Assembly: GCA_016187125.1 (NCBI GenBank)
Contig: JACPKF010000002.1
Span: 1,469-65,468 of the forward strand
From: Candidatus Saccharimonadota bacterium
Lineage (GTDB): Bacteria > Patescibacteriota > Saccharimonadia > Saccharimonadales > UBA10212
Direction of reading: 5' to 3'
Length of the DNA stretch: 64,000 nucleotides
Shown: positions 2,923-52,251 of the stretch, one piece after another
Position numbering within the stretch: position 1 is the first letter of the stretch
Layout: each line of letters begins with the position of its first letter
The notes under the pieces: generated by a model
The model's input: only the letters and a program-made list of their open reading frames with translations
Told to the model about the DNA's origin: nothing
Database searches by the model: none
Program-made: the position numbers and the translations under genes

Positions 2923-3061
2923 CTAAGCCTCCGGAGGCAATTACCAATTTACAATTCTGCAATTTACAATCAATTTTCAATGACTCAATTTCCAAAGCCT
3001 TGCTTATTTGACCTTTTGGTTCTTGAATGAAAATTGAAAATTGAAAATTGAAAATTTTCAT

Positions 3062-3907
3062 TTAGAGTTCCTCGGCAAAATTACGAGAACTACGGCGGAA
3101 ATACCAAATCGATATAGCTGCCAGAACCAGAATAAAAATTACCGGCCAAACCCGGCCCAAAAACTGAGAATTAAATACCTGCTTGGTTGTCAGCGTTTGG
3201 GGAGTAATAGTTATCGAGCGCATATCCTGAATAATTTGAGTTAAGGGATTAATGCTCAGGAGCTCACGTATTGTTTGGGAGCTGGGATAAGTTAATGGAT
3301 AGAGTATTGGTGTGGCATAAAAAAGGGCTTGCAAAATTACTTCCCAAATGTGGCTAATGTCGCGGAATTTCACGAACAGCGCCGAAAGCGTGAACGAAAC
3401 TGCCAGACAAAGCAGCGCCAACTCGACAATAAGCAAAGGTACGAATACTAAGCTAGCTCGAAAAGGCACGTGGCCTATGATCATAAAAATAATCACTACC
3501 AGCAAGTTAAGGGAAAAGTTGATAAAGGCTGAAAGGGTCGTACTAATGACAATAATGTGTTTGGGGACGGAGACCTTACGAACCAAATCACCACGGCCGG
3601 TAATAGCGTTCAAGCCGCTCATTGTAGATTCGGTAAAGAAAGTCCAAAGAACTATGCCTAGCAGAAGATATGACGGAAAATATGGAACGTCTTTACCGAC
3701 ATTAAATACTTGGGTAAAAACTACATAAAGAACGCCGAACAGCATCAACGGCCGGAGCAGCGACCAAAGATACCCCAGCACCGACCCTTGGTAGCGCAAC
3801 TTAAAATCGCTAGCCACTAGTTCCCTCAGTAAGCTGCGGTTGCTGGCTTTAAAAAATTGCTGGGTTGAATTCACGCTAAACCACCTCCGAATAGAATTTT
3901 TCGGCAA
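3062..3907 (-). CDS. wzm: ABC-2 type polysaccharide exporter permease (Wzm/TagG type)
   Basis: 281-aa polytopic membrane protein with about 6 TM segments, located immediately upstream of the Wzt-like ATPase. Its start overlaps the upstream glycosyltransferase gene. Confidence 0.8.
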   Translation of the reverse strand: MPKNSIRRWFSVNSTQQFFKASNRSLLRELVASDFKLRYQGSVLGYLWSLLRPLMLFGVLYVVFTQVFNVGKDVPYFPSYLLLGIVLWTFFTESTMSGLNAITGRGDLVRKVSVPKHIIVISTTLSAFINFSLNLLVVIIFMIIGHVPFRASLVFVPLLIVELALLCLAVSFTLSALFVKFRDISHIWEVILQALFYATPILYPLTYPSSQTIRELLSINPLTQIIQDMRSITITPQTLTTKQVFNSQFLGRVWPVIFILVLAAISIWYFRRSSRNFAEEL

Positions 3908-5948
3908 TCTTCATTATGGCATCCCAGCGAAACTGGCGGGCGGTTTTTAGGCCCTCAGCTGCTAAACGCTGCCTCAGGGCATGACTCGACTGGAGTTTTT
4001 TAATTGCTTCTGATAAAGCTTGTTCGTCGTCTTGTTCAACCATTAGGCAGTTTTTGCCAGCCAAACTAAAGTCACGATTGCCATGGGCATCGGTACAAAT
4101 TACCGGGCAGCCGGCGGCCATGGCTTCCAGAATCGGTAAACAAAAACCTTCGTGGCGGCTGGTTTGGACAAAAAAAGTAGCTTGGTTGTAAAGCTTATTT
4201 ACTTCACTGTTCTGCGGTTTTTTAAAGTAGGTAATTTTTCGGTCAAGTCTAGCCATTTCTGGCTCCGCGCCATAAAGCCACATCTCGGGACGCTTGTCAC
4301 CCAGCAGTTTCCAACCTCTAAAAGTCATCGGAAAGTTTTTTTGGAAAAAGCTGCGGCCGACTGCCAGCATCACATTGGCTTGGCGCTCGACATTTTTCAG
4401 CGGATGGTAGATTTTGTCGTCATAGCCACAGGGCAATAGCGTGGCCTCAAGACCTATGGCCCTAAGTTCTTCCTGGTTGGAAGACGAGATGGTTAAATTA
4501 CGAAATTCCTTACGGTAACAAGAGACTACTACCGACTGGGCTACGATATCATCTGGATAAAACCATGTTTCGAATTCCGAAACCATATATACCGGAATAC
4601 CCCTTTTAACCGAAGCTAGCCAAACCGGAAAGGCTGTTTCCCACCAAGTGGCGACTTTTATGGCGTCTTCATGAGACAAAGCTTGGGTTAGGCGGTCATA
4701 ATTTTTAAAAGTTCGAATTTTTATCTTATCGGAGAAATCCCAGATGGGACGATCTCTGTCTAGCCCCCAAATTTCAATGTCAAAATTACGCTCTGATAAG
4801 CGGTTAGCCTGCTCAAAAATATTCTTTATTCCCCCAGACAAGCCAAAGGTTTGGAGCACAAAAATAATTCGGCGCTTCCCTGCAGCGTTTGTCACTCTTC
4901 GTTTATCAAACCAGTCGCCCCATTTGTTCCAAAAATAATCGATTGATTGTTTTTCTTTGACGGACATGGTTTTGTGTTTTGCCCTAGTAGCTGACTCCAC
5001 GTGGGTCAGGGTGGCTGAAGGGAAGTATAAGGTTCGATAGCCAGCTTCCCAACCGCGCAGGCACAAATCAACATCCTCAAAAGCAAATTCAAAGTTGGTA
5101 TCAACCCCGCCAACGTAATCCAAAAGTTCCCGTTTTATATACAAACAGGCACCAGTCATAAACAGACAATAATGCGGCACGTTGGCCGGGCCATAATTAG
5201 ACTCTTGGAAACGATAATAGTGGTCAAACCACTTCGGCTGATCGGTGTTACGATGGCCGCCGGCGCTCTGGATACGGCCATCCGGATAAAGCAGTTTTGG
5301 CCCAACGATGCCGGTATCAACACCAAATTCATAGGCTCCGTATTGCAGGGCTTCCAGCCAGCCTTGGTGGGCGATGATATCGCTGTTGAGCAGCACTACG
5401 TCGTGTTTTTTGTCAGCTGCTTCCAGACCGCTATTGACGGCTTTGGCAAAACCGCCATTTTGTTTGCGGTAAAGCACCTTAACTTGTCCGTCTTCCAAAG
5501 TTTTCAGATACTGGCGGCTGGCGGACGTACAATAATCATCAACTATCAAAATCGATACCATCTCAGGGTCAGTAGTTGTTTTAAGGCTGTCGACACAAGA
5601 AGCCAGTACCTCAAAGTCGTTATAGCTAGGGATAACGATAGTTACTGGTTTGGCATGCTTGGCATACCAGGGTGTTATCGCCTCAGACGATACGCCACTG
5701 ACCAAGCCGTTCGGCAGAGCCCAGCTATCACCAAGTCCCGATGCCCGACGGTCAAAGCTAATTAGCTCATGCTTGAATTTACGTATAAAAGCCGAGGGGC
5801 CAAAGCGAAATAAATATAGGGTAGCCAAAAAAATCGTCCTGATGGGTCCTTTACCTCGGTATTTAAAGTTCCCGTGGGCGGCTCTTCTGAGAATTTTTTT
5901 AAAGACTCGGAATAGTATTTTAAACTTATTCATCCCGTTAGATCTCAC
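3876..5948 (-). CDS. two-domain glycosyltransferase (N-terminal GT2-like, C-terminal GT4/GT1-like)
   Basis: The N-terminal half has VTIVIPSYND...ILIVDD...LLNSD (GT2-type). The C-terminal half has RHEGFCLPILEAMAAGCPVICTD (GT4 E-x7-E region). Confidence 0.8.
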   Translation of the reverse strand: MRSNGMNKFKILFRVFKKILRRAAHGNFKYRGKGPIRTIFLATLYLFRFGPSAFIRKFKHELISFDRRASGLGDSWALPNGLVSGVSSEAITPWYAKHAKPVTIVIPSYNDFEVLASCVDSLKTTTDPEMVSILIVDDYCTSASRQYLKTLEDGQVKVLYRKQNGGFAKAVNSGLEAADKKHDVVLLNSDIIAHQGWLEALQYGAYEFGVDTGIVGPKLLYPDGRIQSAGGHRNTDQPKWFDHYYRFQESNYGPANVPHYCLFMTGACLYIKRELLDYVGGVDTNFEFAFEDVDLCLRGWEAGYRTLYFPSATLTHVESATRAKHKTMSVKEKQSIDYFWNKWGDWFDKRRVTNAAGKRRIIFVLQTFGLSGGIKNIFEQANRLSERNFDIEIWGLDRDRPIWDFSDKIKIRTFKNYDRLTQALSHEDAIKVATWWETAFPVWLASVKRGIPVYMVSEFETWFYPDDIVAQSVVVSCYRKEFRNLTISSSNQEELRAIGLEATLLPCGYDDKIYHPLKNVERQANVMLAVGRSFFQKNFPMTFRGWKLLGDKRPEMWLYGAEPEMARLDRKITYFKKPQNSEVNKLYNQATFFVQTSRHEGFCLPILEAMAAGCPVICTDAHGNRDFSLAGKNCLMVEQDDEQALSEAIKKLQSSHALRQRLAAEGLKTARQFRWDAIMKIAEKFYSEVV

Positions 5949-6009
5949 TCAACTTCCGTATCTCAATAGACGTCTGAACACCTATGCCTGGTTCGACGTA
6001 TAGATAAGC

Positions 6010-7047
6010 ATGGTAAGACTTTTGAGATCTAACGGGATTCATCGGTTGATTAACTCTTCACCACTATACCATATGGGGTGGTCTCTGCCGTACAATGAAG
6101 CTATGGCTAGTACAGTTTTAATAACTGGGGTTAACGGCTTTGTTGGCAAGCACCTGGCGCGTGAACTTAAAAAACGAGGTGTTAAAGTTATTGGCGTTGG
6201 TCGGGAAGTCTCACTGGCGCCCGAGTTGCAAAATACGCTTAGTGATTACTGGGTCTGTGACCTTACCCATAAAGCAGCGGTTACCAAACTTCCCTTAAAA
6301 TCTATTGAGGGGCTAATAAGCCTGGCAGGACTAGCCCGGGTTGGTGATTCTTTTGCCGACCCGGAAAAATATGAAGCTGTTAATGTCGGTGTTTTAGCTA
6401 ATCTTTGCCAGGATCTGCTTGGCAAAAAACTAAACCCAAGAATTATAGCTGTCAGCACTGCTGCGGTTTATGAGCCAAATCAGCCTTTGCCTCTGACCGA
6501 AAACTCCAAACTAACCAAAGACGGTTCGCCTTACGCTATGAGCAAACTTTTAATGGAGCGCTCGGCCAGCCAGTTTCGCGCCCGAGGCCTAGAGTTAATA
6601 ATTGTCCGGCCCTTTAATCATATCGGGCCGGGGCAGGAAGAGGGTTTTTTGGTGCCTGACTTGTTCGCCAAACTCAGGGCGGCAAAATTTTCCGGCGAGA
6701 CTATAAAAGTTGGCAACTTATCAACTAAGCGTGACTACACGGACGTGCGCGATGTAGCTAGAGCTTATGCTGATTTGGCGCTGGCTGGTTCACTGGATTA
6801 TGATCTTTATAACATTGGCAGCGGCAAAAGTGTGGCCGGCCAACAAATGCTAAATCTCTTGCTGGAGAAAACCGGCAAAAGTGGTCAGATCAAGATTGAG
6901 ACCGATAGTTCGCTACTCAGGCCCAACGATATTGCCGACATATTTGGCAGTTACCAGCGCTTAAACCAACAGACTGGCTGGAAGCCTCTTATTCCGCTGG
7001 AAAAAACTATTGAGGATTTTGTTAATTCATTCGACTCATCCGCCTGA
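6010..7047 (+). CDS. NAD-dependent epimerase/dehydratase (extended SDR); candidate GDP-4-keto-6-deoxy-D-mannose reductase (Rmd-like)
   Basis: Rossmann motif ITGVNGFVGKHL and catalytic YAMSK (YxxxK). It is convergent with gmd. The real start is probably the ATG at 6103 (MASTVLITG...), 7 nt after a TACAAT hexamer. The Rmd assignment is by context only. Confidence 0.7.
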   Translation: MVRLLRSNGIHRLINSSPLYHMGWSLPYNEAMASTVLITGVNGFVGKHLARELKKRGVKVIGVGREVSLAPELQNTLSDYWVCDLTHKAAVTKLPLKSIEGLISLAGLARVGDSFADPEKYEAVNVGVLANLCQDLLGKKLNPRIIAVSTAAVYEPNQPLPLTENSKLTKDGSPYAMSKLLMERSASQFRARGLELIIVRPFNHIGPGQEEGFLVPDLFAKLRAAKFSGETIKVGNLSTKRDYTDVRDVARAYADLALAGSLDYDLYNIGSGKSVAGQQMLNLLLEKTGKSGQIKIETDSSLLRPNDIADIFGSYQRLNQQTGWKPLIPLEKTIEDFVNSFDSSA

Positions 7048-8238: not shown

Positions 8239-8265
8239 CTGCTGCAAGGCTAGGCCTTGCAGCAG
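8239..8265. repeat. perfect 12-bp-stem hairpin (ctgctgcaaggc-tag-gccttgcagcag) beside the RAYT-like gene
   Basis: Read directly; the two arms are exact reverse complements. It lies in the divergent spacer between gmd and the transposase gene. Confidence 0.8.
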
Positions 8266-8291: not shown

Positions 8292-8906
8292 ATGCCCGCT
8301 AAAAATCGAATAAAGATCTATGTGCCAGAGGCTTTTTATCATGTATACAACCGGGGGCTCGACAAACAACTGATCTTTATCGACAATACTGATTATTCTG
8401 TCTTCCTTAGTTTGTTTAAACGATATTTGGCTAATGAAACTGTTAAAGATCCCTCGAGAAGAACCTACGAAAAATTAGCCAACGAAGTAGAACTTCTGGC
8501 CTATTGCCTGATTCCTAACCACTTTCATTTACTTATTTACCAGATTGATTCAATGGGTATGCCAAAACTTGTGCAACGGGTCCTTACTTCATACTCAATG
8601 TATTTCAATAAAAAGTATAAGAGGACTGGACCGTTATTTCAGGATACCTATAGGGCGAGTCAGATCTCTTCGGATGAGTACCTACAACATGTATCACGCT
8701 ATATTCACCTCAACCCTAAAAATTGGCGGCATTGGGACTTTTCAAGTCTAAGATATTATCAGGGCAGTCAAAAAGCCGACTGGATAAATGTAAGCCGTGT
8801 CTTAAGAATTTTTCGTAATAATAAAGAATATTTGGAATTTGTTGCCGATTATGAAGATTATAAAAGATCAATTGATGAAATCAAATACGAATTGGCAGAT
8901 CATTAA
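8292..8906 (+). CDS. IS200/IS605-type Y1 HUH transposase, REP-associated tyrosine transposase (RAYT)-like
   Basis: Motifs YHVYNRG, CLIPNHFHLLI (HUH) and SRYIHLNP (catalytic Tyr region) match the Y1_Tnp/RAYT family. Confidence 0.8.
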   Translation: MPAKNRIKIYVPEAFYHVYNRGLDKQLIFIDNTDYSVFLSLFKRYLANETVKDPSRRTYEKLANEVELLAYCLIPNHFHLLIYQIDSMGMPKLVQRVLTSYSMYFNKKYKRTGPLFQDTYRASQISSDEYLQHVSRYIHLNPKNWRHWDFSSLRYYQGSQKADWINVSRVLRIFRNNKEYLEFVADYEDYKRSIDEIKYELADH

Positions 8907-10910: not shown

Positions 10911-10991
10911 GAGGTCTATCCTTGGTGAAAAAGAGGTAAAATTTAGTAATTTTTATAAAAAAATACTTTGCTTTCACCAAGGATAGACCTC
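10911..10991. repeat. 81-nt palindromic element P1 (perfect 20-bp arms, 41-nt AT-rich loop with promoter-like hexamers)
   Basis: The arms gaggtctatccttggtgaaa and tttcaccaaggatagacctc are exact reverse complements. It is homologous to the element at 12805..12886 and lies 30 nt upstream of the jag start. Confidence 0.8.
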
Positions 10992-12804: not shown

Positions 12805-12886
12805 GAGGTCTGTCCTTGTAAAAAAGTTAAGTAAAATCTAGTGATTTTTACTAAAAAATACATTGTTTTTTACAAGGACAGACCTC
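12805..12886. repeat. 82-nt palindromic element P2 (perfect 21-bp arms, 40-nt loop), paralog of P1
   Basis: The arms gaggtctgtccttgtaaaaaa and ttttttacaaggacagacctc are exact reverse complements. It lies 25 nt upstream of the rpmH start, in the rpmH/dnaA divergent spacer. Confidence 0.8.
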
Positions 12887-29437: not shown

Positions 29438-29480
29438 AATTACATTGTATGTACATAGCCGATAGCTGTCAAGTGTTCTT

Positions 29481-29524
29481 TCAAGGACGGTTCTTGAAGA
29501 TCTTCTTTCAAGAACCGTCCTTGG
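29481..29524. repeat. hairpin made of two inverted copies of CAAGGACGGTTCTTG; a third copy lies at 28821..28837
   Basis: Read directly: tcaaggacggttcttga ... tcaagaaccgtccttgg. Together with the copy at 28821..28837 it brackets the MazEF cassette. Confidence 0.75.
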
Positions 29525-29557
29525 AAGTTTGGTAAATTTCTAATGCTTAATTATGGA

Positions 29558-34704: not shown

Positions 34705-34740
34705 CATAACAAAATCCAGCGATCGCTGGATTTTGTTATG
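34705..34740. promoter_or_regulatory. perfect 36-bp palindrome in the divergent T4SS/pilin control region
   Basis: cataacaaaatccagcgatcgctggattttgttatg is its own exact reverse complement. It lies between two genes that diverge from it, so it is not a terminator. Confidence 0.6.
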
Positions 34741-37087: not shown

Positions 37088-37157
37088 CCCAGCACTTAGC
37101 TCCGCGTGCTTCGCAAGTATCTTCCAAAGGAAGATAGTCGCGGAGCTAAGTGCTGGG
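37088..37157. terminator. strong bidirectional hairpin (perfect 19-bp outer stem plus inner hairpin) between convergent genes
   Basis: cccagcacttagctccgcg ... cgcggagctaagtgctggg, with inner hairpin atcttcc-aaa-ggaagat. It lies between pilin 5 and the convergent GIY-YIG gene. Confidence 0.6.
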
Positions 37158-41407: not shown

Positions 41408-41669
41408 GCTTAAGTCGTGACTCCAGCTTCCGTAAAACAGCGGAAGCTGTTTTACTTCCAGCTTACTCGTGCCTTTAAGCTACGCCCCATGAAGAATCCT
41501 CTTTTCGCAGGGACCCCTTAACACCCCGATATCTCGGTGTGTTTTGTTGAGACTGCGCTACAATAAACATAAGCATGAATCCCGTTAGACCCCAAAAGAC
41601 TCACAAGCATCGTATGTCGGTTGAATCTCGGCATAGTTTATCAATCGTTAACCAGCAACAGAAGGTTAA

Positions 41670-42257
41670 GTGGGGTCTAACGGGATGAATGATGACGAAA
41701 ATGGGTCTTGGGATTATAAACCCGACGGCCAAAATGTTTCCAAGCAGCCGGAGCTGCCCAGCACCAAGTCTGGAAAAACTCATCGTAGGCAGCCAGAACT
41801 AAAGCCGGTTAGTTGGACAGCTTCGGAATACATTGACCATAGCCGGGGGCCGGTTTGGTATATTTTACTAAGTTTCATCACCGTGTTACTAGCCGCTGCA
41901 GTTTATTTTCTTACCAAAGATCGTTTTGCAACTGGCCTGGTTGCAGTTGTTGGCATAATTGTAGCTGTTTATAGCCTAAAAAAACCTCAACAACTTACAT
42001 ATGAGCTATCTGAGTCCGGCTTGAGGGCCGGTGAGAAGGTCTACACCTACAGACTTTTTAAATCGTTTGCCATTATCCATGAAGGCGCTCTGTCCAGCAT
42101 AACTTTTCTGCCCATCAAAAAATTTATGCCGCCACTTAGTATCTTTTTTGACGCAGCGGACGAAGAAAAAATAGTCAAAATTCTTGGTCAGCACCTGCCC
42201 TACGAGCAGCGAGGACTGGACAGCATGGATCGTCTTACCCGTCGCCTCCGCTTCTAA
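41670..42257 (+). CDS. membrane protein with two TM segments and a C-terminal ~90-aa domain (bacterial PH-like?), function unknown
   Basis: 195-aa ORF; the likely start is the ATG at 41685. TM pair VWYILLSFITVLLAAAVYFL / GLVAVVGIIVAVYSL. Confidence 0.55.
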   Translation: MGSNGMNDDENGSWDYKPDGQNVSKQPELPSTKSGKTHRRQPELKPVSWTASEYIDHSRGPVWYILLSFITVLLAAAVYFLTKDRFATGLVAVVGIIVAVYSLKKPQQLTYELSESGLRAGEKVYTYRLFKSFAIIHEGALSSITFLPIKKFMPPLSIFFDAADEEKIVKILGQHLPYEQRGLDSMDRLTRRLRF

Positions 42258-43756: not shown

Positions 43757-44020
43757 AAATACTCTTCTTTATTTATATCATTAAAAATTATTTATCAAGC
43801 TCTAGTTTAGCATCATTCTAAAAAAAAGTCAATCAGCTATCCCTGAACCTCAAAACCTCCGTCAAAGTCCATCGCCCAAGGTACAACTCATCCGTTGTTT
43901 ACAAGTTGTTTACAAGGAGCCTCCTTGTAAACGGCAAAAATATTGTCTAATAAATTATGTTTTGAGATTCAGGTAGCTATGGCTTAAATAAGAACTCTGA
44001 ATTGGTATTATAGAAAATGC

Positions 44021-45232
44021 ATGTTAAAAAGCGCTCACAATTTGGTTAAAAGTGTTGGTAAAAAGCTGAAGCTTGACGATGCGACCGTAGAAAAGCTTCT
44101 GAAGGCGGACGCGGAGCACCAGTTTGAAATTAGTTTGAAAAGTGGGAAGCAGTTTAAGGCTTACCGTGTCCAGCATAGCAATAAACTAGGCCCCTATAAA
44201 GGCGGAATCAGATTCCATCCTCGGGTGAATCTGGATGAAATAAGAACTCTGGCAACTTTAATGAGTCTTAAAACTGCCGCTGTGGGGCTGCCGCTTGGTG
44301 GCAGCAAAGGCGGCGTGACGGTGGATCCAAAGGTACTTACTCAAGACGAACTCGAGGAACTAAGTCGTAAGTATGTACAGCACCTGCAATCTCATATAGG
44401 ACCGGCTAAAGACGTCCCTGCTCCTGATGTAAATACCAATGCCCAAATCATGGATTGGATGATTGACGAATACCAAAATCTGACTGGCAACCTGAGCCAG
44501 GCTAGTTTTACCGGTAAAAGTCTGACTAGTGGCGGCAGTGAAGGCCGTGATGAAGCCACCGGCCGCGGCGGCGTAATTGCCCTGCGCGAACTCCTTATGC
44601 TACAAGGATTATCCTTGCAGCATAAGGGGGATCAGGTATTGCGTTTTGCCGTTCAGGGATTTGGCAATGTGGGTTCGAATTTTGCAATCGTCGCTGAGCA
44701 GGAGCAGCCCAACTGGAAGTTAATTGCCGCCAGTGATTCTGGTGCCACTATTTTTGACTCAGAAGGACTTAGTGCCTCTAGTCTGGCGGCCTTTAAAAAA
44801 CAAGCTGGCCGCTTTAGCCAGTACAAAAATGCTCAAGTCCTAAACAGTGACGCAATATTGTTCCTGGAAGTTGATGTTTTGGTCCTAGCGGCCCTGGAGG
44901 ATGCCATAACAAATAAGAACATGCAGCAGGTTAAGGCCCGACTTATCGTTGAGCTAGCCAATGGGCCGATTAACGAAACCGCCTATGGTTACTTGGCCAA
45001 AAAAGGCATAACTGTTTTACCGGACATTATCACCAATGCCGGAGGCGTTATTGTAAGTTATTTGGAGTGGCTACAAAATAAGGCTGATGAGCGTTGGACG
45101 CGCGCCAAAGTTAACACCGAGCTAGAACAGTACATGATTAAAGCCATAAGCGAGGTTTATAAAACTTCTAGTTCACAAAATCTGACACTCAAAGAAGCGG
45201 CAATTATGCTAGCTCTCAAACGCCTGACTTAA
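44021..45232 (+). CDS. gdh: Glu/Leu/Phe/Val dehydrogenase family (glutamate dehydrogenase-like)
   Basis: Catalytic region KGGIRFHP...LPLGGSKGG and the Rossmann motif AVQGFGNVG. Confidence 0.85.
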   Translation: MLKSAHNLVKSVGKKLKLDDATVEKLLKADAEHQFEISLKSGKQFKAYRVQHSNKLGPYKGGIRFHPRVNLDEIRTLATLMSLKTAAVGLPLGGSKGGVTVDPKVLTQDELEELSRKYVQHLQSHIGPAKDVPAPDVNTNAQIMDWMIDEYQNLTGNLSQASFTGKSLTSGGSEGRDEATGRGGVIALRELLMLQGLSLQHKGDQVLRFAVQGFGNVGSNFAIVAEQEQPNWKLIAASDSGATIFDSEGLSASSLAAFKKQAGRFSQYKNAQVLNSDAILFLEVDVLVLAALEDAITNKNMQQVKARLIVELANGPINETAYGYLAKKGITVLPDIITNAGGVIVSYLEWLQNKADERWTRAKVNTELEQYMIKAISEVYKTSSSQNLTLKEAAIMLALKRLT

Positions 45233-45393
45233 ACAATGTTCGATGTCTCATAGAATAAGGCGAGACCAAAAGCAATGCAGTATTGCTATTTATTTGCTAC
45301 AAGGATAATCCTTGTAGCAAATCTTGTAGCAAATAAATAGTCTCTAGACTACTGACGGAGAGTGCTTTTACAGTTAATAAATTTAGTAGTCTG

Positions 45394-48541: not shown

Positions 48542-49408
48542 TTGGGTAGTGTTACCAATGAAACAGAATTGGGTAAAAAATTGCAGCTGGCTCGCAAACG
48601 TGCCGGCTTAACCCAACAACAGCTATGCCAAAAAGCCGGTCTGTCTTATTCAACCCTGGCCAAAATCGAACGCGGCGCTATTCGTTCCCCCTCGGTATTT
48701 ACGGTTGCCTCCATAGCCAGCGCCACTAGTACGCCTTTAGAAGACCTGCTTGATTTAGATACCCAAAGTGGCGGCTCCCCTGCCCCGCCGAACGCCAAAA
48801 AACGCTCCAAAACCGGAATCAGATTTGTTTATTTTGATATTGACGGCGTTTTGATAAGGTTTGTTATGCACGCCTTTCCTAAAATAGCTCGGGACCACGG
48901 GCTTCAACCAGACGTCGTCGAAAATGCTTTTTGGCGTCACAACGACTCGGTTTGCAGGGGGGATATTAGCCTGGAAGAGTTTAACTCAGTCGTTGGCCAA
49001 GAGCTCGGCATAAGCGGCTTCAGTTGGCTAAAATATTATTTTGAATCAGCCGAACCAACTCCCGGAGCCATCGATTTTTTGAAATGGGCAGCCCAACACT
49101 ACGACGTCGGCCTTATCAGCAACCATATGCCCGGTGAGACCGAAGAGTTATTCAAACGCCAGATTATCCCTGAGCTGGACTTTAAAACCGTGGTTGATTC
49201 TTGCAAGGTGGGAGCTGTCAAGCCAGAGGCCAAAATTTATGAAACCGCCACTGAGCTGGCAGCCGCTACGCCACCAGAAATTCTGTTGATTGACGATAAC
49301 CGGACCAATTTAACGGCTGCCGACCGTGCCGGCTGGCAAATATCCTGGTTTGACCAGTTTCAACCGGCCGAGAGTATCGAGCGGGCCAAAGCTCAGCTGG
49401 AGTTTTAA
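48542..49408 (+). CDS. fusion protein: N-terminal XRE-type HTH domain plus C-terminal HAD-superfamily hydrolase domain
   Basis: HTH region LGKKLQLARKRAGLTQQQLCQKAGLSYSTLAKIERG. HAD motifs are FDIDGV (I), LISNH (II), K-containing (III) and LIDDNRTN (IV). Confidence 0.7.
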   Translation: MGSVTNETELGKKLQLARKRAGLTQQQLCQKAGLSYSTLAKIERGAIRSPSVFTVASIASATSTPLEDLLDLDTQSGGSPAPPNAKKRSKTGIRFVYFDIDGVLIRFVMHAFPKIARDHGLQPDVVENAFWRHNDSVCRGDISLEEFNSVVGQELGISGFSWLKYYFESAEPTPGAIDFLKWAAQHYDVGLISNHMPGETEELFKRQIIPELDFKTVVDSCKVGAVKPEAKIYETATELAAATPPEILLIDDNRTNLTAADRAGWQISWFDQFQPAESIERAKAQLEF

Positions 49409-52251
49409 ATATTTTTGACAGCTGTTTGGAAAGCCGCGATTTCGTGTTTGATAGCTTCTAAAAGTTGCTGCTCTTCGACTAATTGAGTTTTTGTTTGTTT
49501 GACTAATTCCTTCGGCGCTTTTTGAGTGTAAGATTTGTTAGATAGGCGCTTTTGCAGCAGCTTTATGGCGGCTTCTCGCGCCTTTTGGGAGGTTTTTAGC
49601 CGGCCTAAGTAGGCTTGAGCGGTTTCCCGGTCAATGTCCAGCCAAGCGGCGTATTTAGTGCCGGTTAGTCGTAAGCCCTTAGCTGCTTTAGCTTCTTTTA
49701 CCTGGCTTAAGCGTCCTAAACTTTTGACTAATTCTTTATTTTCATCAATCAGCGGCGCGGCTTTATAAAACAGCGCCGGTTTAGTAACACCAACATTGGC
49801 GGCTATTTGCCTGGACTGGGTAATAATTTCTTGGAGCTCTTTGAATTGGCTAACCTTAGCTAGATCAACTTTCTGAAATTTTGGCCAAAGCTGCGAGGCC
49901 AGCAAACTCTCCTTTTCCAAGGCCAGGCCTTGGAAAAGGTTTTTATCCTGAGCAGAGTCGCCCATTCGACCTTGCTCAGGGCGGTCCTGCCCATTCGACG
50001 AGTTCAGGGCAGCCTTAGTGTTAATCGAAGGCTGAGTTTTGTCGAACGGATCGAAGGATTGCCAGATGGTTTCGGTAACAAATGGAGCAAATGGGTGGGC
50101 TATTTTTAGAGTTGATTTAAGCACGAAGGCCAGCACTTCTCTGTTGGGCGTTGTTTTGCTGACTTCTACGTACCAGTCGGCAAAATCATCCCAAACAAAA
50201 TGGTACAGCGCGTCATAAGCTTCGCTGAAACGGAAATTATCCAAGTCCTCAGAAACAGCCCTCGCCGCAATACTTAACTTGTTAAGTATCCAATGATCGG
50301 CAACCGATTTTGGCATAACACTACCCCTGTTATGACCTAAGGGTACGACCCTTAGACTTCTTCTACCTATGTTGTTCTCCTCGCCCTCTAAGGGTCGTAC
50401 CCTTAGGTCGTCTATGTAGCGGGCGATGTTCCAGAGCTTGTTAACAAAATTACGGTTGGCTACGATCTTTGACTTTCTTACTCGCTGGTCAGTTCCTGGA
50501 GAAGTGCCGGCTATCAAAGCCAAGCGCAGAGCGTCAGTGCCGTATTCATTTATAACTCCAACTGGATCAACGATGCTGTCTGGATCACTTTTGCTCATTT
50601 TCTTGCCGGTTTCTGTCCGCACTAGGCCATGCAGATAAACGGTTTTAAATGGTACTCGGCCAGTAACATAAGTAGTGGCTAGAATCATTCGGGCAACCCA
50701 GAAAAAGAGAATTTCATAAGCTGTTTCTAAGACATCAGTCGGGTGGTAAGTTTGATAGTCAATACTTTTGGCTAAAAGATCATCCAGCGATAGCGAAAAG
50801 TCCTTTGTCAGTTCTGGATCGACTAAGGTGCTCCAGGTCCAAAGCGCCGAGGAAAACCAGGTATCCAGCGTGTCCGGATCTTGCTGCCAGCCCTCTTCCT
50901 GCGGCGGCCTAACGCCTACATAAACACTGTCTTTGCTGTGGACCGCGGACTGTGGACTGTGGACTGATTCCTGTCTGTACCACACCGGAATCTGATGTCC
51001 CCACCAGATTTGACGGCTGATGCACCAGTCCCGCAGATTATCAATCCAGTGGTAGTAAATTTTCTCGAACCGTTTAGGCACAATCTTAATATCGCCATCT
51101 TCAATAACAGCTCTCATGACTTCCTTGAGGCTGCGTTTTTGACCCTTCCAATCTACCGCCGGCCGGTTGACATCAATAAACCATTGCAGTTTGATTTGTG
51201 GTTCAATAACACCTTTGCCGCGGCTATTTAAAGCGATGTTATGGGTGTATGTCTTGTCAATGCTGACCAATAAATTTTTCTGACGCAATTTTTCCACAAT
51301 TTTAGGCCGGGCTTCATCTATTTTTATAGCTTCGAATTCGCCGGCGATAGCTAAAAGCTTTCCATCAAAATCAATAATTTGTTCTTTTTCCAGACCGTGC
51401 CGCTCGGCGATTTCAAAGTCAGTGCGGTCGTGCCACGGCGTGATGGTCATCACCCCTGTTCCAAAGGCTGGGTCCACGGCCTCGTCTTTAATAATGGTGG
51501 CGGTAACTGGGCCATTGATCCATTCACATTCAAAAGTGTCGCCGGTTTTATATTGAGCGTAGCGTTTGTCACCGGGATGCATAACGACGTATTTGTCGCC
51601 AAACTTGGTTTCGGGACGGGCCGTGCTTATCTTAAAAGGGCCGTACTGTAAGGTGTAAAGTGGCGACTCCTCTTCTTTGTAAATAACTTCATCGTCAGAA
51701 ACCGTAGTTTCCAGATTGGGGTCCCAATTAACTATCCGATGGCCCCTGTAAATTAGCCCGTCTTGGTACATTTTTATAAAGACTTCGTTAACGCAACGGT
51801 TAAGTGCCTCGTCTAAGGTGTATCGCAGCCGGCTCCAATCGGCGCTGGCGCCCATAGCCCGCATTTGCTTAAGCATTGTACCTCTGTTACGATCGGCAAA
51901 CTCCTTGACCTTGGCAACAAAGGCTTCGCGGCCCAGTTCGTGTTTATTGGTCCCCTGCTCTGCCAGTTGTCGCTCAACTACAGAATTTGTAGCAATCGCT
52001 GCGTGGTCGGTTCCCGGTAACCAGAGAGCGTCGTAACCCACCTGGCGCGCATGCCTGATTAGAATGTCTTGAAGCGTTATGAATAATGCCCCGCCAAGGT
52101 GGAGGGTGGATGTTTCATTGGGGGGTGGCATGGCTATAGAGAAATGAGGTTTGGAGCTACTCGGATCAGCTATAAAGACGCCGCTCTTCTCCCAAAGGGC
52201 ATAAATATCGGCTTCATAATCACCTGCAACATAGGCTTTAGGTAATCCCAT
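49405..52251 (-). CDS. valS: valine--tRNA ligase carrying several repeat-derived in-frame insertions
   Basis: PPPNETSTLHLGGA (HIGH region with an HLGG variant), LWLPGTDHAAIAT, KMSKS (GKKMSKSD) and a C-terminal coiled coil; 948 aa. Confidence 0.9.
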   Translation of the reverse strand: MGLPKAYVAGDYEADIYALWEKSGVFIADPSSSKPHFSIAMPPPNETSTLHLGGALFITLQDILIRHARQVGYDALWLPGTDHAAIATNSVVERQLAEQGTNKHELGREAFVAKVKEFADRNRGTMLKQMRAMGASADWSRLRYTLDEALNRCVNEVFIKMYQDGLIYRGHRIVNWDPNLETTVSDDEVIYKEEESPLYTLQYGPFKISTARPETKFGDKYVVMHPGDKRYAQYKTGDTFECEWINGPVTATIIKDEAVDPAFGTGVMTITPWHDRTDFEIAERHGLEKEQIIDFDGKLLAIAGEFEAIKIDEARPKIVEKLRQKNLLVSIDKTYTHNIALNSRGKGVIEPQIKLQWFIDVNRPAVDWKGQKRSLKEVMRAVIEDGDIKIVPKRFEKIYYHWIDNLRDWCISRQIWWGHQIPVWYRQESVHSPQSAVHSKDSVYVGVRPPQEEGWQQDPDTLDTWFSSALWTWSTLVDPELTKDFSLSLDDLLAKSIDYQTYHPTDVLETAYEILFFWVARMILATTYVTGRVPFKTVYLHGLVRTETGKKMSKSDPDSIVDPVGVINEYGTDALRLALIAGTSPGTDQRVRKSKIVANRNFVNKLWNIARYIDDLRVRPLEGEENNIGRRSLRVVPLGHNRGSVMPKSVADHWILNKLSIAARAVSEDLDNFRFSEAYDALYHFVWDDFADWYVEVSKTTPNREVLAFVLKSTLKIAHPFAPFVTETIWQSFDPFDKTQPSINTKAALNSSNGQDRPEQGRMGDSAQDKNLFQGLALEKESLLASQLWPKFQKVDLAKVSQFKELQEIITQSRQIAANVGVTKPALFYKAAPLIDENKELVKSLGRLSQVKEAKAAKGLRLTGTKYAAWLDIDRETAQAYLGRLKTSQKAREAAIKLLQKRLSNKSYTQKAPKELVKQTKTQLVEEQQLLEAIKHEIAAFQTAVKNI
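50336..50407. mobile_element. 72-bp MITE-like element with perfect 20-bp terminal inverted repeats, inserted in frame in valS
   Basis: cctaagggtacgacccttag ... ctaagggtcgtacccttagg are exact reverse complements. 72 nt is 24 codons, which encode LRVRPLEGEENNIGRRSLRVVPLG in a variable part of ValRS. Confidence 0.65.

Follow-up and report, generated by a model that had tools for sequence, protein, structure and literature searches.

In valS, the valyl-tRNA synthetase gene of a Candidatus Saccharimonadota genome, a perfect palindrome lies in frame; it adds a new case to a class of selfish palindromic DNA that is already known, and is no novel type of element. The gene is located in a stretch of 64,000 nucleotides (contig JACPKF010000002.1), which was analyzed as a whole and is called the window hereafter. 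We favor the explanation that in this palindrome two copies of a short hairpin repeat, which resembles repetitive extragenic palindromic (REP) sequences, stand head to head, and, as a compromise figure for the explanation overall, we consider it probable. Its parts are held with different confidence. That a dispersed, REP-like palindromic repeat has been inserted in frame and is translated is very likely, and its mobilization by an enzyme of the REP-associated tyrosine transposase (RAYT) type, for which architecture and co-occurrence speak, is proposed only tentatively.

A perfect palindrome in the valS reading frame

The features of the valS locus are as follows, with the hairpin units numbered in coding order.

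49405..52251, minus strand: valS, valine-tRNA ligase of 948 amino acids, the sole long open reading frame (ORF) across the palindrome
50334..50409, minus strand: whole palindrome, a doublet like the REPINs (inverted REP doublets), with two 23-nt arms and a 30-nt spacer (76 nt)
50388..50406, minus strand: hairpin unit 1, coding strand CTAAGGGTACGACCCTTAG, encoding LRVRPL (aa 616–621)
50357..50386, minus strand: spacer between the 23-nt arms, encoding GEENNIGRRS and differing between genomes
50337..50355, minus strand: hairpin unit 2, coding strand CTAAGGGTCGTACCCTTAG, encoding LRVVPL (aa 633–638)
50335..50406, minus strand: the 24 extra codons, L616–G639, missing from most relatives of the protein

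The two arms (50334–50356 and 50387–50409) are perfectly complementary over 23 nt each and are separated by 30 nt. The original prediction, which was made from the letters of the window, had described two 20-mers at this place as exact reverse complements and each arm as a small hairpin in itself. Both descriptions were correct; the complementarity in fact reaches 23 nt, and each arm folds alone into an 8-bp stem with a 3-nt loop. The loop of unit 2 is the reverse complement of the loop of unit 1. The whole palindrome folds with −48.8 kcal/mol as RNA (z = −6.3) and with −23.6 kcal/mol as DNA (z = −9.0). We calculate that 64 kb should contain, by chance, about 1e-7 perfect inverted repeats of 23 nt whose arms lie within 150 nt. 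The arms had no further match in the window with up to 3–4 mismatches allowed, and two arm matches were obtained in none of 100 dinucleotide shuffles of the window. No Rfam family reached its gathering score anywhere in the window, and around the valS element there was no match even at E up to 1.

The valS product matches the Pfam families tRNA-synt_1, Anticodon_1 and Val_tRNA-synt_C, as a class-I valyl-tRNA synthetase (ValRS). It is 100% identical to an NCBI ValRS of Candidatus Saccharibacteria and aligns with the T. thermophilus ValRS (1GAX) at E = 8e-148. The extra peptide LRVRPLEGEENNIGRRSLRVVPLG corresponds to residues 616–639, between NKLWN and DHWIL, and the peptides around its junctions read VRPLEGEENNIGR and VVPLGHNR in the translation. 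About 115 of the 120 aligned ValRS relatives are without a counterpart of this segment, and nearly all have about 6–10 residues there (for example YIEDSGNNRGEIAPKS). The equivalent stretch of 1GAX is the short loop FVLLSREGFQAKEDTPTLADRF. In the AlphaFold model of the protein (mean predicted local distance difference test score, pLDDT, 82), a coil at residues 619–649 with pLDDT of about 52–54 connects the helices 593–618 and 650–671, and the insert is positioned in the loop from the last helix before the anticodon-binding domain to the first helix of that domain. Judged from these alignments, the valS palindrome is an insertion relative to the orthologues, and we infer that it is translated as an extra surface loop, which is tolerated by ValRS. 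The original prediction had placed the insert between the NKLWN and DHWI blocks, where ValRS proteins are normally short, and had proposed an alignment of orthologues and mapping on a structure as a check. The alignment and 1GAX agree with this placement, and the insertion is borne out by both approaches, the structural position being a low-confidence loop between two helices. The insert was also said to be exactly 24 codons long and to preserve the ValRS frame, which holds with the codon interval 50335–50406, one base off the interval given at that time.

The source of the window is a metagenome-assembled genome, from which an assembly or amplification artefact, for example an inverted chimera, might be suspected. 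However, an independent assembly of another project (locus L001, GCA_016187175.1) has the same arms at this place in valS, and the repeated unit described below recurs in several independent data sets. The chance of an artefact is therefore taken as negligible.

Two other lineage-specific inserts were observed in valS, both modeled with pLDDT below 50. One is a low-complexity insert of 43 aa (aa 733–775; window 49927–50055). The other is the 8-aa insert VHSPQSAV (window 50941–50964), at the site of which some ValRS relatives have a folded domain of about 110 aa instead.

The repeated unit is a 19-nt mini-hairpin dispersed among relatives

The repeated unit is the 19-nt mini-hairpin CTAAGGGT-NNN-ACCCTTAG, and each valS arm holds one copy of it. 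The consensus of the unit is yCTAAGGGT-NNN-ACCCTTAGr, in which the stem has 8 bp and the loop 3 nt. Most often the unit is flanked by T or C at −1 and by A at +1, and with these bases the consensus comprises 21 nt, or 7 codons. As DNA, a single 19-nt unit has a folding free energy of −5.8 kcal/mol (z about −5). The unit ends with TTAG, or with GTAG at L001 and at a second related locus, L002, and these bases are paired within the stem.

The exact 19-mer CTAAGGGTCGTACCCTTAG was scanned on both strands of a genome collection of 596 Gb, of metagenomes and of viral contigs; for the genome under study, copies were counted within the 64-kb window. The genome collection gave 8 loci, of which 6 were Saccharibacterial (three in JACPKG01, two in MGCV01 and one in JAYSLE01). 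The remaining two matches, in Ferrovibrio and 'Salivita', are at chance level (596e9 x 2 / 4^19, about 4 expected). Seven further exact loci were found in the metagenomes. The viral contigs gave no match to the exact 19-mer, and a phage origin of the unit was rejected on this result. JACPKG01 has at least three loci with 5 units and MGCV01 has two loci, and in the window the valS doublet is the only one. The family occupies about 9–10 distinct sites in a small clade of Saccharibacteria, and the unit is a dispersed repeat of this clade. The sites are as follows.

valS site A, window and L001 (GCA_016187175.1, protein P0011): doublet; L001 reads DD-LRVRPV-DP-LRVVPLG, with the same two arms and only 5 nt between the units
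valS, a few codons downstream of site A, L002 (P0007/P0008): one unit, CTACGGGTCGTACCCGTAG, without the doublet
valS site B, L019 (P0020): doublet at a different valS loop and in the other frame, KGRTLGTTQGTTL
ileS: doublet, PKGTTLR-LKGRTLR in IleRS
alaS: copy encoding LRVVPL in AlaRS
ruvC: copy encoding SSKGTTLRY in RuvC
prmC-like methyltransferase gene: copies in two orthologues (L005 and L017)
nnrD: copy encoding SKGRTLR in NnrD
5' leader of a small gene: doublet, found in two genomes, 13–20 nt ahead of the start codon

The original prediction of a palindromic element tolerated inside an essential gene is thus extended to a dispersed family, which is found in frame in other essential genes of the relatives. 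The IleRS insert directly precedes LLDKWVLARL, and its loop is homologous to the ValRS site, because tblastn aligns the IleRS segment to the ValRS region of L019/L020. The RuvC insert is missing in 57 of 60 orthologues, and a variant insert, PRGTTSR, is present in P0258. For prmC, alaS, ileS and nnrD, no empty-site orthologue was present among the sequences compared. The small gene behind the 5' leader doublet precedes a Y-family polymerase gene (Pfam IMS). As a separate observation, a 39-nt block, TAATCTAAGCAGCTAGCCTTTATAAAAGCCACTTGCCGT, is 100% conserved between L004 (about 2390–2430) and L011 (about 1065–1105), upstream of the hairpin doublet and the operon of the small ORF and the Y-family polymerase, and may be a promoter or operator.

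The units stand alone or form inverted doublets. In the doublets, the two 19-nt units are about 1 to 33 nt apart, and the total length ranges from 38 to 76 nt. All four independent doublets (valS A, valS B, ileS and the 5' leader) have opposite loops and form a single long hairpin. These properties bear directly on the proposal, made in the original prediction, of a miniature inverted-repeat transposable element (MITE) of 72 bp with 20-bp terminal inverted repeats (TIRs). A classical MITE would be a non-autonomous transposon of this length with TIRs of 20–23 bp, moved whole by a DDE transposase. Perfect TIRs of 23 nt are formally present, and the window contains a true MITE-like pair elsewhere (5923–6047 and 41574–41691). 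However, a second copy of the 72-mer or of the spacer was not found in the window or in either collection, and two exact units about 33 nt apart were found at no other locus in the genome and metagenome scans. The orthologous site of L001 has the same arms around its much shorter spacer, in the other doublets about 1 to 11 nt separate the units, and many copies stand alone. No target-site duplication was detected at the borders of the valS element, taken as either 72 or 76 nt, and the flanking bases are not a direct repeat. The spacer sequence AACAACATAGGT shows a weak likeness to CATAACAGGGGT, the sequence after unit 2, which is ambiguous as a duplication, both resembling an ancestral NNRG. 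The MITE proposal was therefore abandoned as very improbable, the unit being a hairpin of 19–21 nt.

The spacer itself appears to have a different origin from the arms. In the window it contains GAG AAC AAC ATA GGT, which resembles GGA AAT AAC AGA GGT in the L002 loop, and from this likeness to the ancestral loop the spacer is taken as host sequence trapped between the units. The 30-nt spacer is probably the ancestral GNNRG host loop caught between two units, not a part of a mobile 72-mer. The same resemblance would fit a palindrome that arose locally in valS by a template-switch or foldback error of replication, unrelated to other loci, and the orthologous prmC sites, where the loops are opposite, point to hairpin loops being able to flip in place. 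However, the identical 19-mer occurs at no fewer than eight other unrelated sites in relatives, which is beyond the reach of local errors. A purely local origin is effectively refuted by this distribution, and we leave it hardly any weight.

Intragenic copies avoid the stop frame

The intragenic copies are always read in one of two stop-free frames, LRV[V/R]PL or KG[R/T]TL. The third frame reads C-TAA, which is a stop, and it is used by none of the approximately 9 intragenic sites; the probability of this by chance is about (2/3)^9 = 0.03. The avoidance of the stop frame speaks for translation of the inserts and against their removal. An untranslated intervening sequence would behave differently, with the stem cut from the mRNA as a mini-intron or by RNase III-type processing, or bypassed by the ribosome. 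A perfect RNA stem of 23 bp is long enough for RNase III, and the RNA fold energy of the palindrome is in line with such processing. However, the frame is kept and the stop frame is avoided in all intragenic copies, which would be needless if the segments were removed, and Rfam gave no match. To our knowledge, no bacterial ligation mechanism exists for such mRNA cuts. Removal or bypass of the segment is thus scarcely credible.

Conservation of the units

The ValRS proteins of the window and of L001 have 70% identity, and 44.5% of the codons for identical residues match. The hairpin codons common to the two valS genes are identical at 12 of 12 positions, a signal that is moderated by the segment around the insert being the best conserved part of valS anyway. 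The nucleotide identity between the window and L001 peaks at 0.84–0.88 around the insert. A recombination tract around the element was considered and rejected, because the flanks are equally conserved against L002, which is without the doublet. The pair of prmC orthologues, L005 and L017, gives a stronger conservation signal than the valS pair. Their neighborhood has 70% nucleotide identity, whereas no difference is seen at the 19 positions on the two sides of the loop, and the 3-nt loop of one orthologue is the exact reverse complement of that of the other. Identity of this kind would mean either that the hairpin is constrained, or that the copies are copy-corrected, or that the site was hit repeatedly.

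Constraint on the hairpin would also be expected from a functional motif, such as an RNase III or ribosome-pausing signal, a protein operator or a DNA-uptake signal, homogenized by selection or gene conversion. The unit is conserved far above its surroundings, the L002 unit carries a compensatory stem change (CTACGGG...CCCGTAG), and the 5' leader doublet stands close upstream of a start codon in two genomes. On the other hand, the host genes are unrelated and have no common regulation, the copies are located at arbitrary surface loops, and they are insertions, not substitutions. The copy number is far below the level of uptake signals, and Rfam gave no match at E up to 1. We consider a functional motif improbable, with a small but appreciable chance.

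A Y1 transposase gene and a second hairpin family

A gene for a candidate trans-acting enzyme is present in the same window. The features that concern this gene and a second family of hairpins are as follows.

8292..8906, plus strand: RAYT-like Y1 (HUH) transposase gene, 204 aa, with HFHLL and YIHLNP motifs; candidate trans-acting enzyme
8239..8265, no strand assigned: REP-like hairpin CTGCTGCAAGGC-TAG-GCCTTGCAGCAG with a 12-bp stem, 27 nt upstream of the Y1 gene
49911..49939, minus strand: second in-frame valS palindrome, CCTTTTCCAAGGCC-A-GGCCTTGGAAAAGG, encoding FQGLALEK; it belongs to the CAAGG...CCTTG family, which flanks Y1

The product of 8292–8906 matches Pfam Y1_Tnp (E = 6.6e-11; 42.8 bits vs a cut-off of 23), and its orthologues of about 204 aa are counted in thousands in Saccharibacteria and Patescibacteria. 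The flanks of the Y1 gene were examined at 7 loci, namely that of the window and six orthologous loci. At the six other loci the orthologues are flanked by mini-hairpins, doublets or TIRs, with the same geometry as the valS units, and related TTGCARGG hairpins or doublets are present on both sides of orthologues across Saccharibacteria and Patescibacteria. The hairpins that flank the Y1 gene are of the type TTGCAAGG; one example of the elements at the other loci is CTAGAGGGACAATCCCTAT-T-ATAGGGATTGTCCCTCTAG, and the doublets share their architecture with the valS element. The flanks of the orthologues are as follows.

L018: TGCAAGGC-CGA-GCCTTGCA on both sides
L026: CTTTGCAAGGA-CAA/TTG-TCCTTGCAAAG, the loops of the two flanks being opposite
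L025 and L027: TTGCAGGG... units
L023/L024: doublets of AGGGA-CAA-TCCCT mini-hairpins
L021: 16-nt TIRs

The CAAGG-N5-CCTTG family (GCTRCAAGG-N5-CCTTGYAGC) has 5 copies in the window, where 0.46 are expected, including those at 43908–43932, 44593–44627, 45292–45322 and 49911–49939. The copy at 44593–44627 lies in frame inside a glutamate dehydrogenase-type gene and encodes LQGLSLQ. In L001, a copy at 4081–4115 lies in frame inside TsaD and encodes LLQGLSLQQ, and TsaD of the window has a degenerate version of this palindrome with equal length. The Y1 gene and the TTGCARGG hairpins together look like a REP-RAYT system that is undescribed in bacteria of the Candidate Phyla Radiation (CPR).

Two further observations were made. 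In the ValRS relatives P0016, P0020, P0026 and P0063, the recurring loop peptides SSSKALAEE, ASAKALAG and LQGLALLQGQSLQ were noticed at the protein level, and they look like translated palindromes of the CAAGGC/GCCTTG type. These peptides suggest that colonization of surface loops by hairpins is widespread in the clade. Separately, a hairpin in the window at 29478–29527, CAAGGACGGTTC...GAACCGTCCTTG, resembles the 16-nt inverted repeats of L021, GCGAGGACGGTTC and GAACCGTCCTCGC, which bracket the Y1 orthologue there (flanks of 3001–3651).

A possible mechanism and its weak points

In the mechanism that we propose, the units would spread as single-stranded DNA hairpins, on which a RAYT-type Y1 (HUH) tyrosine transposase would act in trans, as proposed for REPs and REPINs. 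The mobilizing enzyme may be the Y1 protein of the window, or a lost or unseen paralogue. In gene-dense genomes, copies would survive only when they are in frame in permissive loops.

Several of our observations weigh against a REP-like repeat mobilized in this way. The copy number is low, with one locus in the window and at least three loci in the best genome; classical REPs are present in tens to hundreds of copies. The unpaired GTAG or CGTC tag is absent from the units. At none of the 7 loci is the Y1 gene flanked by CTAAGGGT units; its flanks carry a different family, TTGCARGG-N-CCYTGCAA hairpins or TIRs, and therefore no enzyme is tied to the valS family. The best NCBIfam match of the Y1 protein, the REP-associated tyrosine transposase (RayT) equivalog, reaches 43 bits, which is below its cut-off of 80. 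Some of the copies occupy orthologous positions in more than one genome; these are old and vertically inherited, and any recent mobility would be hypothetical. In ruvC, a net +15 nt distinguishes filled from empty sites, instead of a clean 19 or 21 nt, and the sequence around them has diverged, so that no clean insertion boundaries can be drawn from this gene.

A bolder version of the proposal, which we regard as unlikely, is that, in ultra-small, gene-dense Saccharibacteria genomes, a system of the REP/RAYT type has left intergenic space and entered the coding sequences of essential genes, for example at a loop that is homologous between two class-I tRNA synthetases. The 19-nt units of this system would be held identical across species with otherwise scrambled synonymous sites, either because an enzyme continues to correct or re-insert the copies, or because the hairpin itself is under selection. 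If this is true, the element would be a long-lived, intragenic, symbiont-like replicator and not decaying junk.

The favored explanation, a doublet of REP-like repeats, would extend REP/REPIN-like repeats and Y1 transposases to the CPR. Where a genome has hardly any intergenic space, repeats of this kind would settle in permissive loops of essential enzymes, in parallel to the Rickettsia palindromic elements (RPEs). They would account for a part of the protein length variation in Saccharibacteria and for odd recurrent peptides (LRVVPL, KGRTL and QGLAL/AKALA). The units could serve as simple markers for lineage tracking, and they offer a tractable case for asking whether a domesticated Y1 transposase maintains intragenic hairpins.

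Other repeats in the window

The MITE-like pair mentioned above consists of two copies of about 120 bp (5923–6047 and 41574–41691), with TIRs of 21–25 nt (CATTCATCCCGTTAGAyCyCA) and partly similar interiors. Both copies are intergenic, one of them adjoining tRNA-Ser, and they look like a genuine MITE pair. Long intergenic inverted repeats are present at 10911–10991 and 12805–12886, with the common arms GAGGTCTrTCCTTG...AAAAA; the arms are 21 nt and perfect in one, and 39 nt with 77% complementarity in the other. They could be bidirectional terminators, or else members of another repeat family. At 34705–34740, the perfect 36-nt palindrome CATAACAAAATCCAGCGATCGCTGGATTTTGTTATG is located in a divergent intergenic region by an ORF of 1702 aa and looks like an operator. 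At 37088–37157, two convergent genes are separated by a perfect 19-nt inverted repeat, its spacer being 32 nt long, which is probably a terminator; its geometry is like that of the valS element, and its sequence is unrelated.

Comparison with known systems

A search of the literature for palindromic repeats in Saccharibacteria, Patescibacteria or other CPR bacteria found nothing relevant, and the comparison is made with systems of other bacteria. MITEs such as Correia, ERIC and BOX are, like the valS element, small, non-coding inverted-repeat elements that are at times intragenic. They move whole, with TIRs and target-site duplications, whereas the valS element as a whole is unrepeated in the window and in both collections and has no duplication.

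RPEs are the classic case of in-frame palindromes (reviewed in PMC10969869), and the original prediction had compared the valS element with them. The likeness stands for palindromes located in frame in unrelated housekeeping genes of a reduced genome and tolerated as an extra peptide. It does not extend to size, sequence or host phylum. RPEs are about 100–150 bp long with family-specific conserved peptides, whereas the valS unit has 19–21 nt, or 7 codons, is without sequence likeness to RPEs and comes from an unrelated phylum.

REPINs are inverted REP doublets that form hairpins, and they are associated with RAYT transposases (Bertels & Rainey 2011, PMC3116915; Bertels et al. 2017, PMC5581495). 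The REP-RAYT arrangement has been described in Proteobacteria (PMC3116915, PMC3733652), and RAYT genes flanked by REPs or TIRs are already known (PMC3733652). According to Di Nocera et al. (2013, PMC3733652), REPs have an unpaired GTAG or CGTC tetranucleotide at one end, and intragenic REPs and REP dimers encoding 20–30 residues are reported from Opitutus terrae and Rickettsia conorii. The family in valS differs from these systems in being mostly intragenic (9 of about 10 sites), whereas REPs are usually extragenic, in its very low copy number, in the lack of the unpaired tag, in the other hairpin family that flanks the Y1 gene, and in its host phylum, Saccharibacteria, of the CPR. It resembles them in the unit, which is a short palindrome able to form a stem-loop and falls within the class of about 20–40 nt, in the inverted doublets with a variable spacer that fold into one long hairpin, perhaps in a dispersal of copies within a genome, and in the presence of a single-copy, hairpin-flanked Y1 gene in the same genome. 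The valS element thus lacks the extragenic location, the unpaired tag and a RAYT gene flanked by the same REP, and it has the structure of REPs and REPINs.

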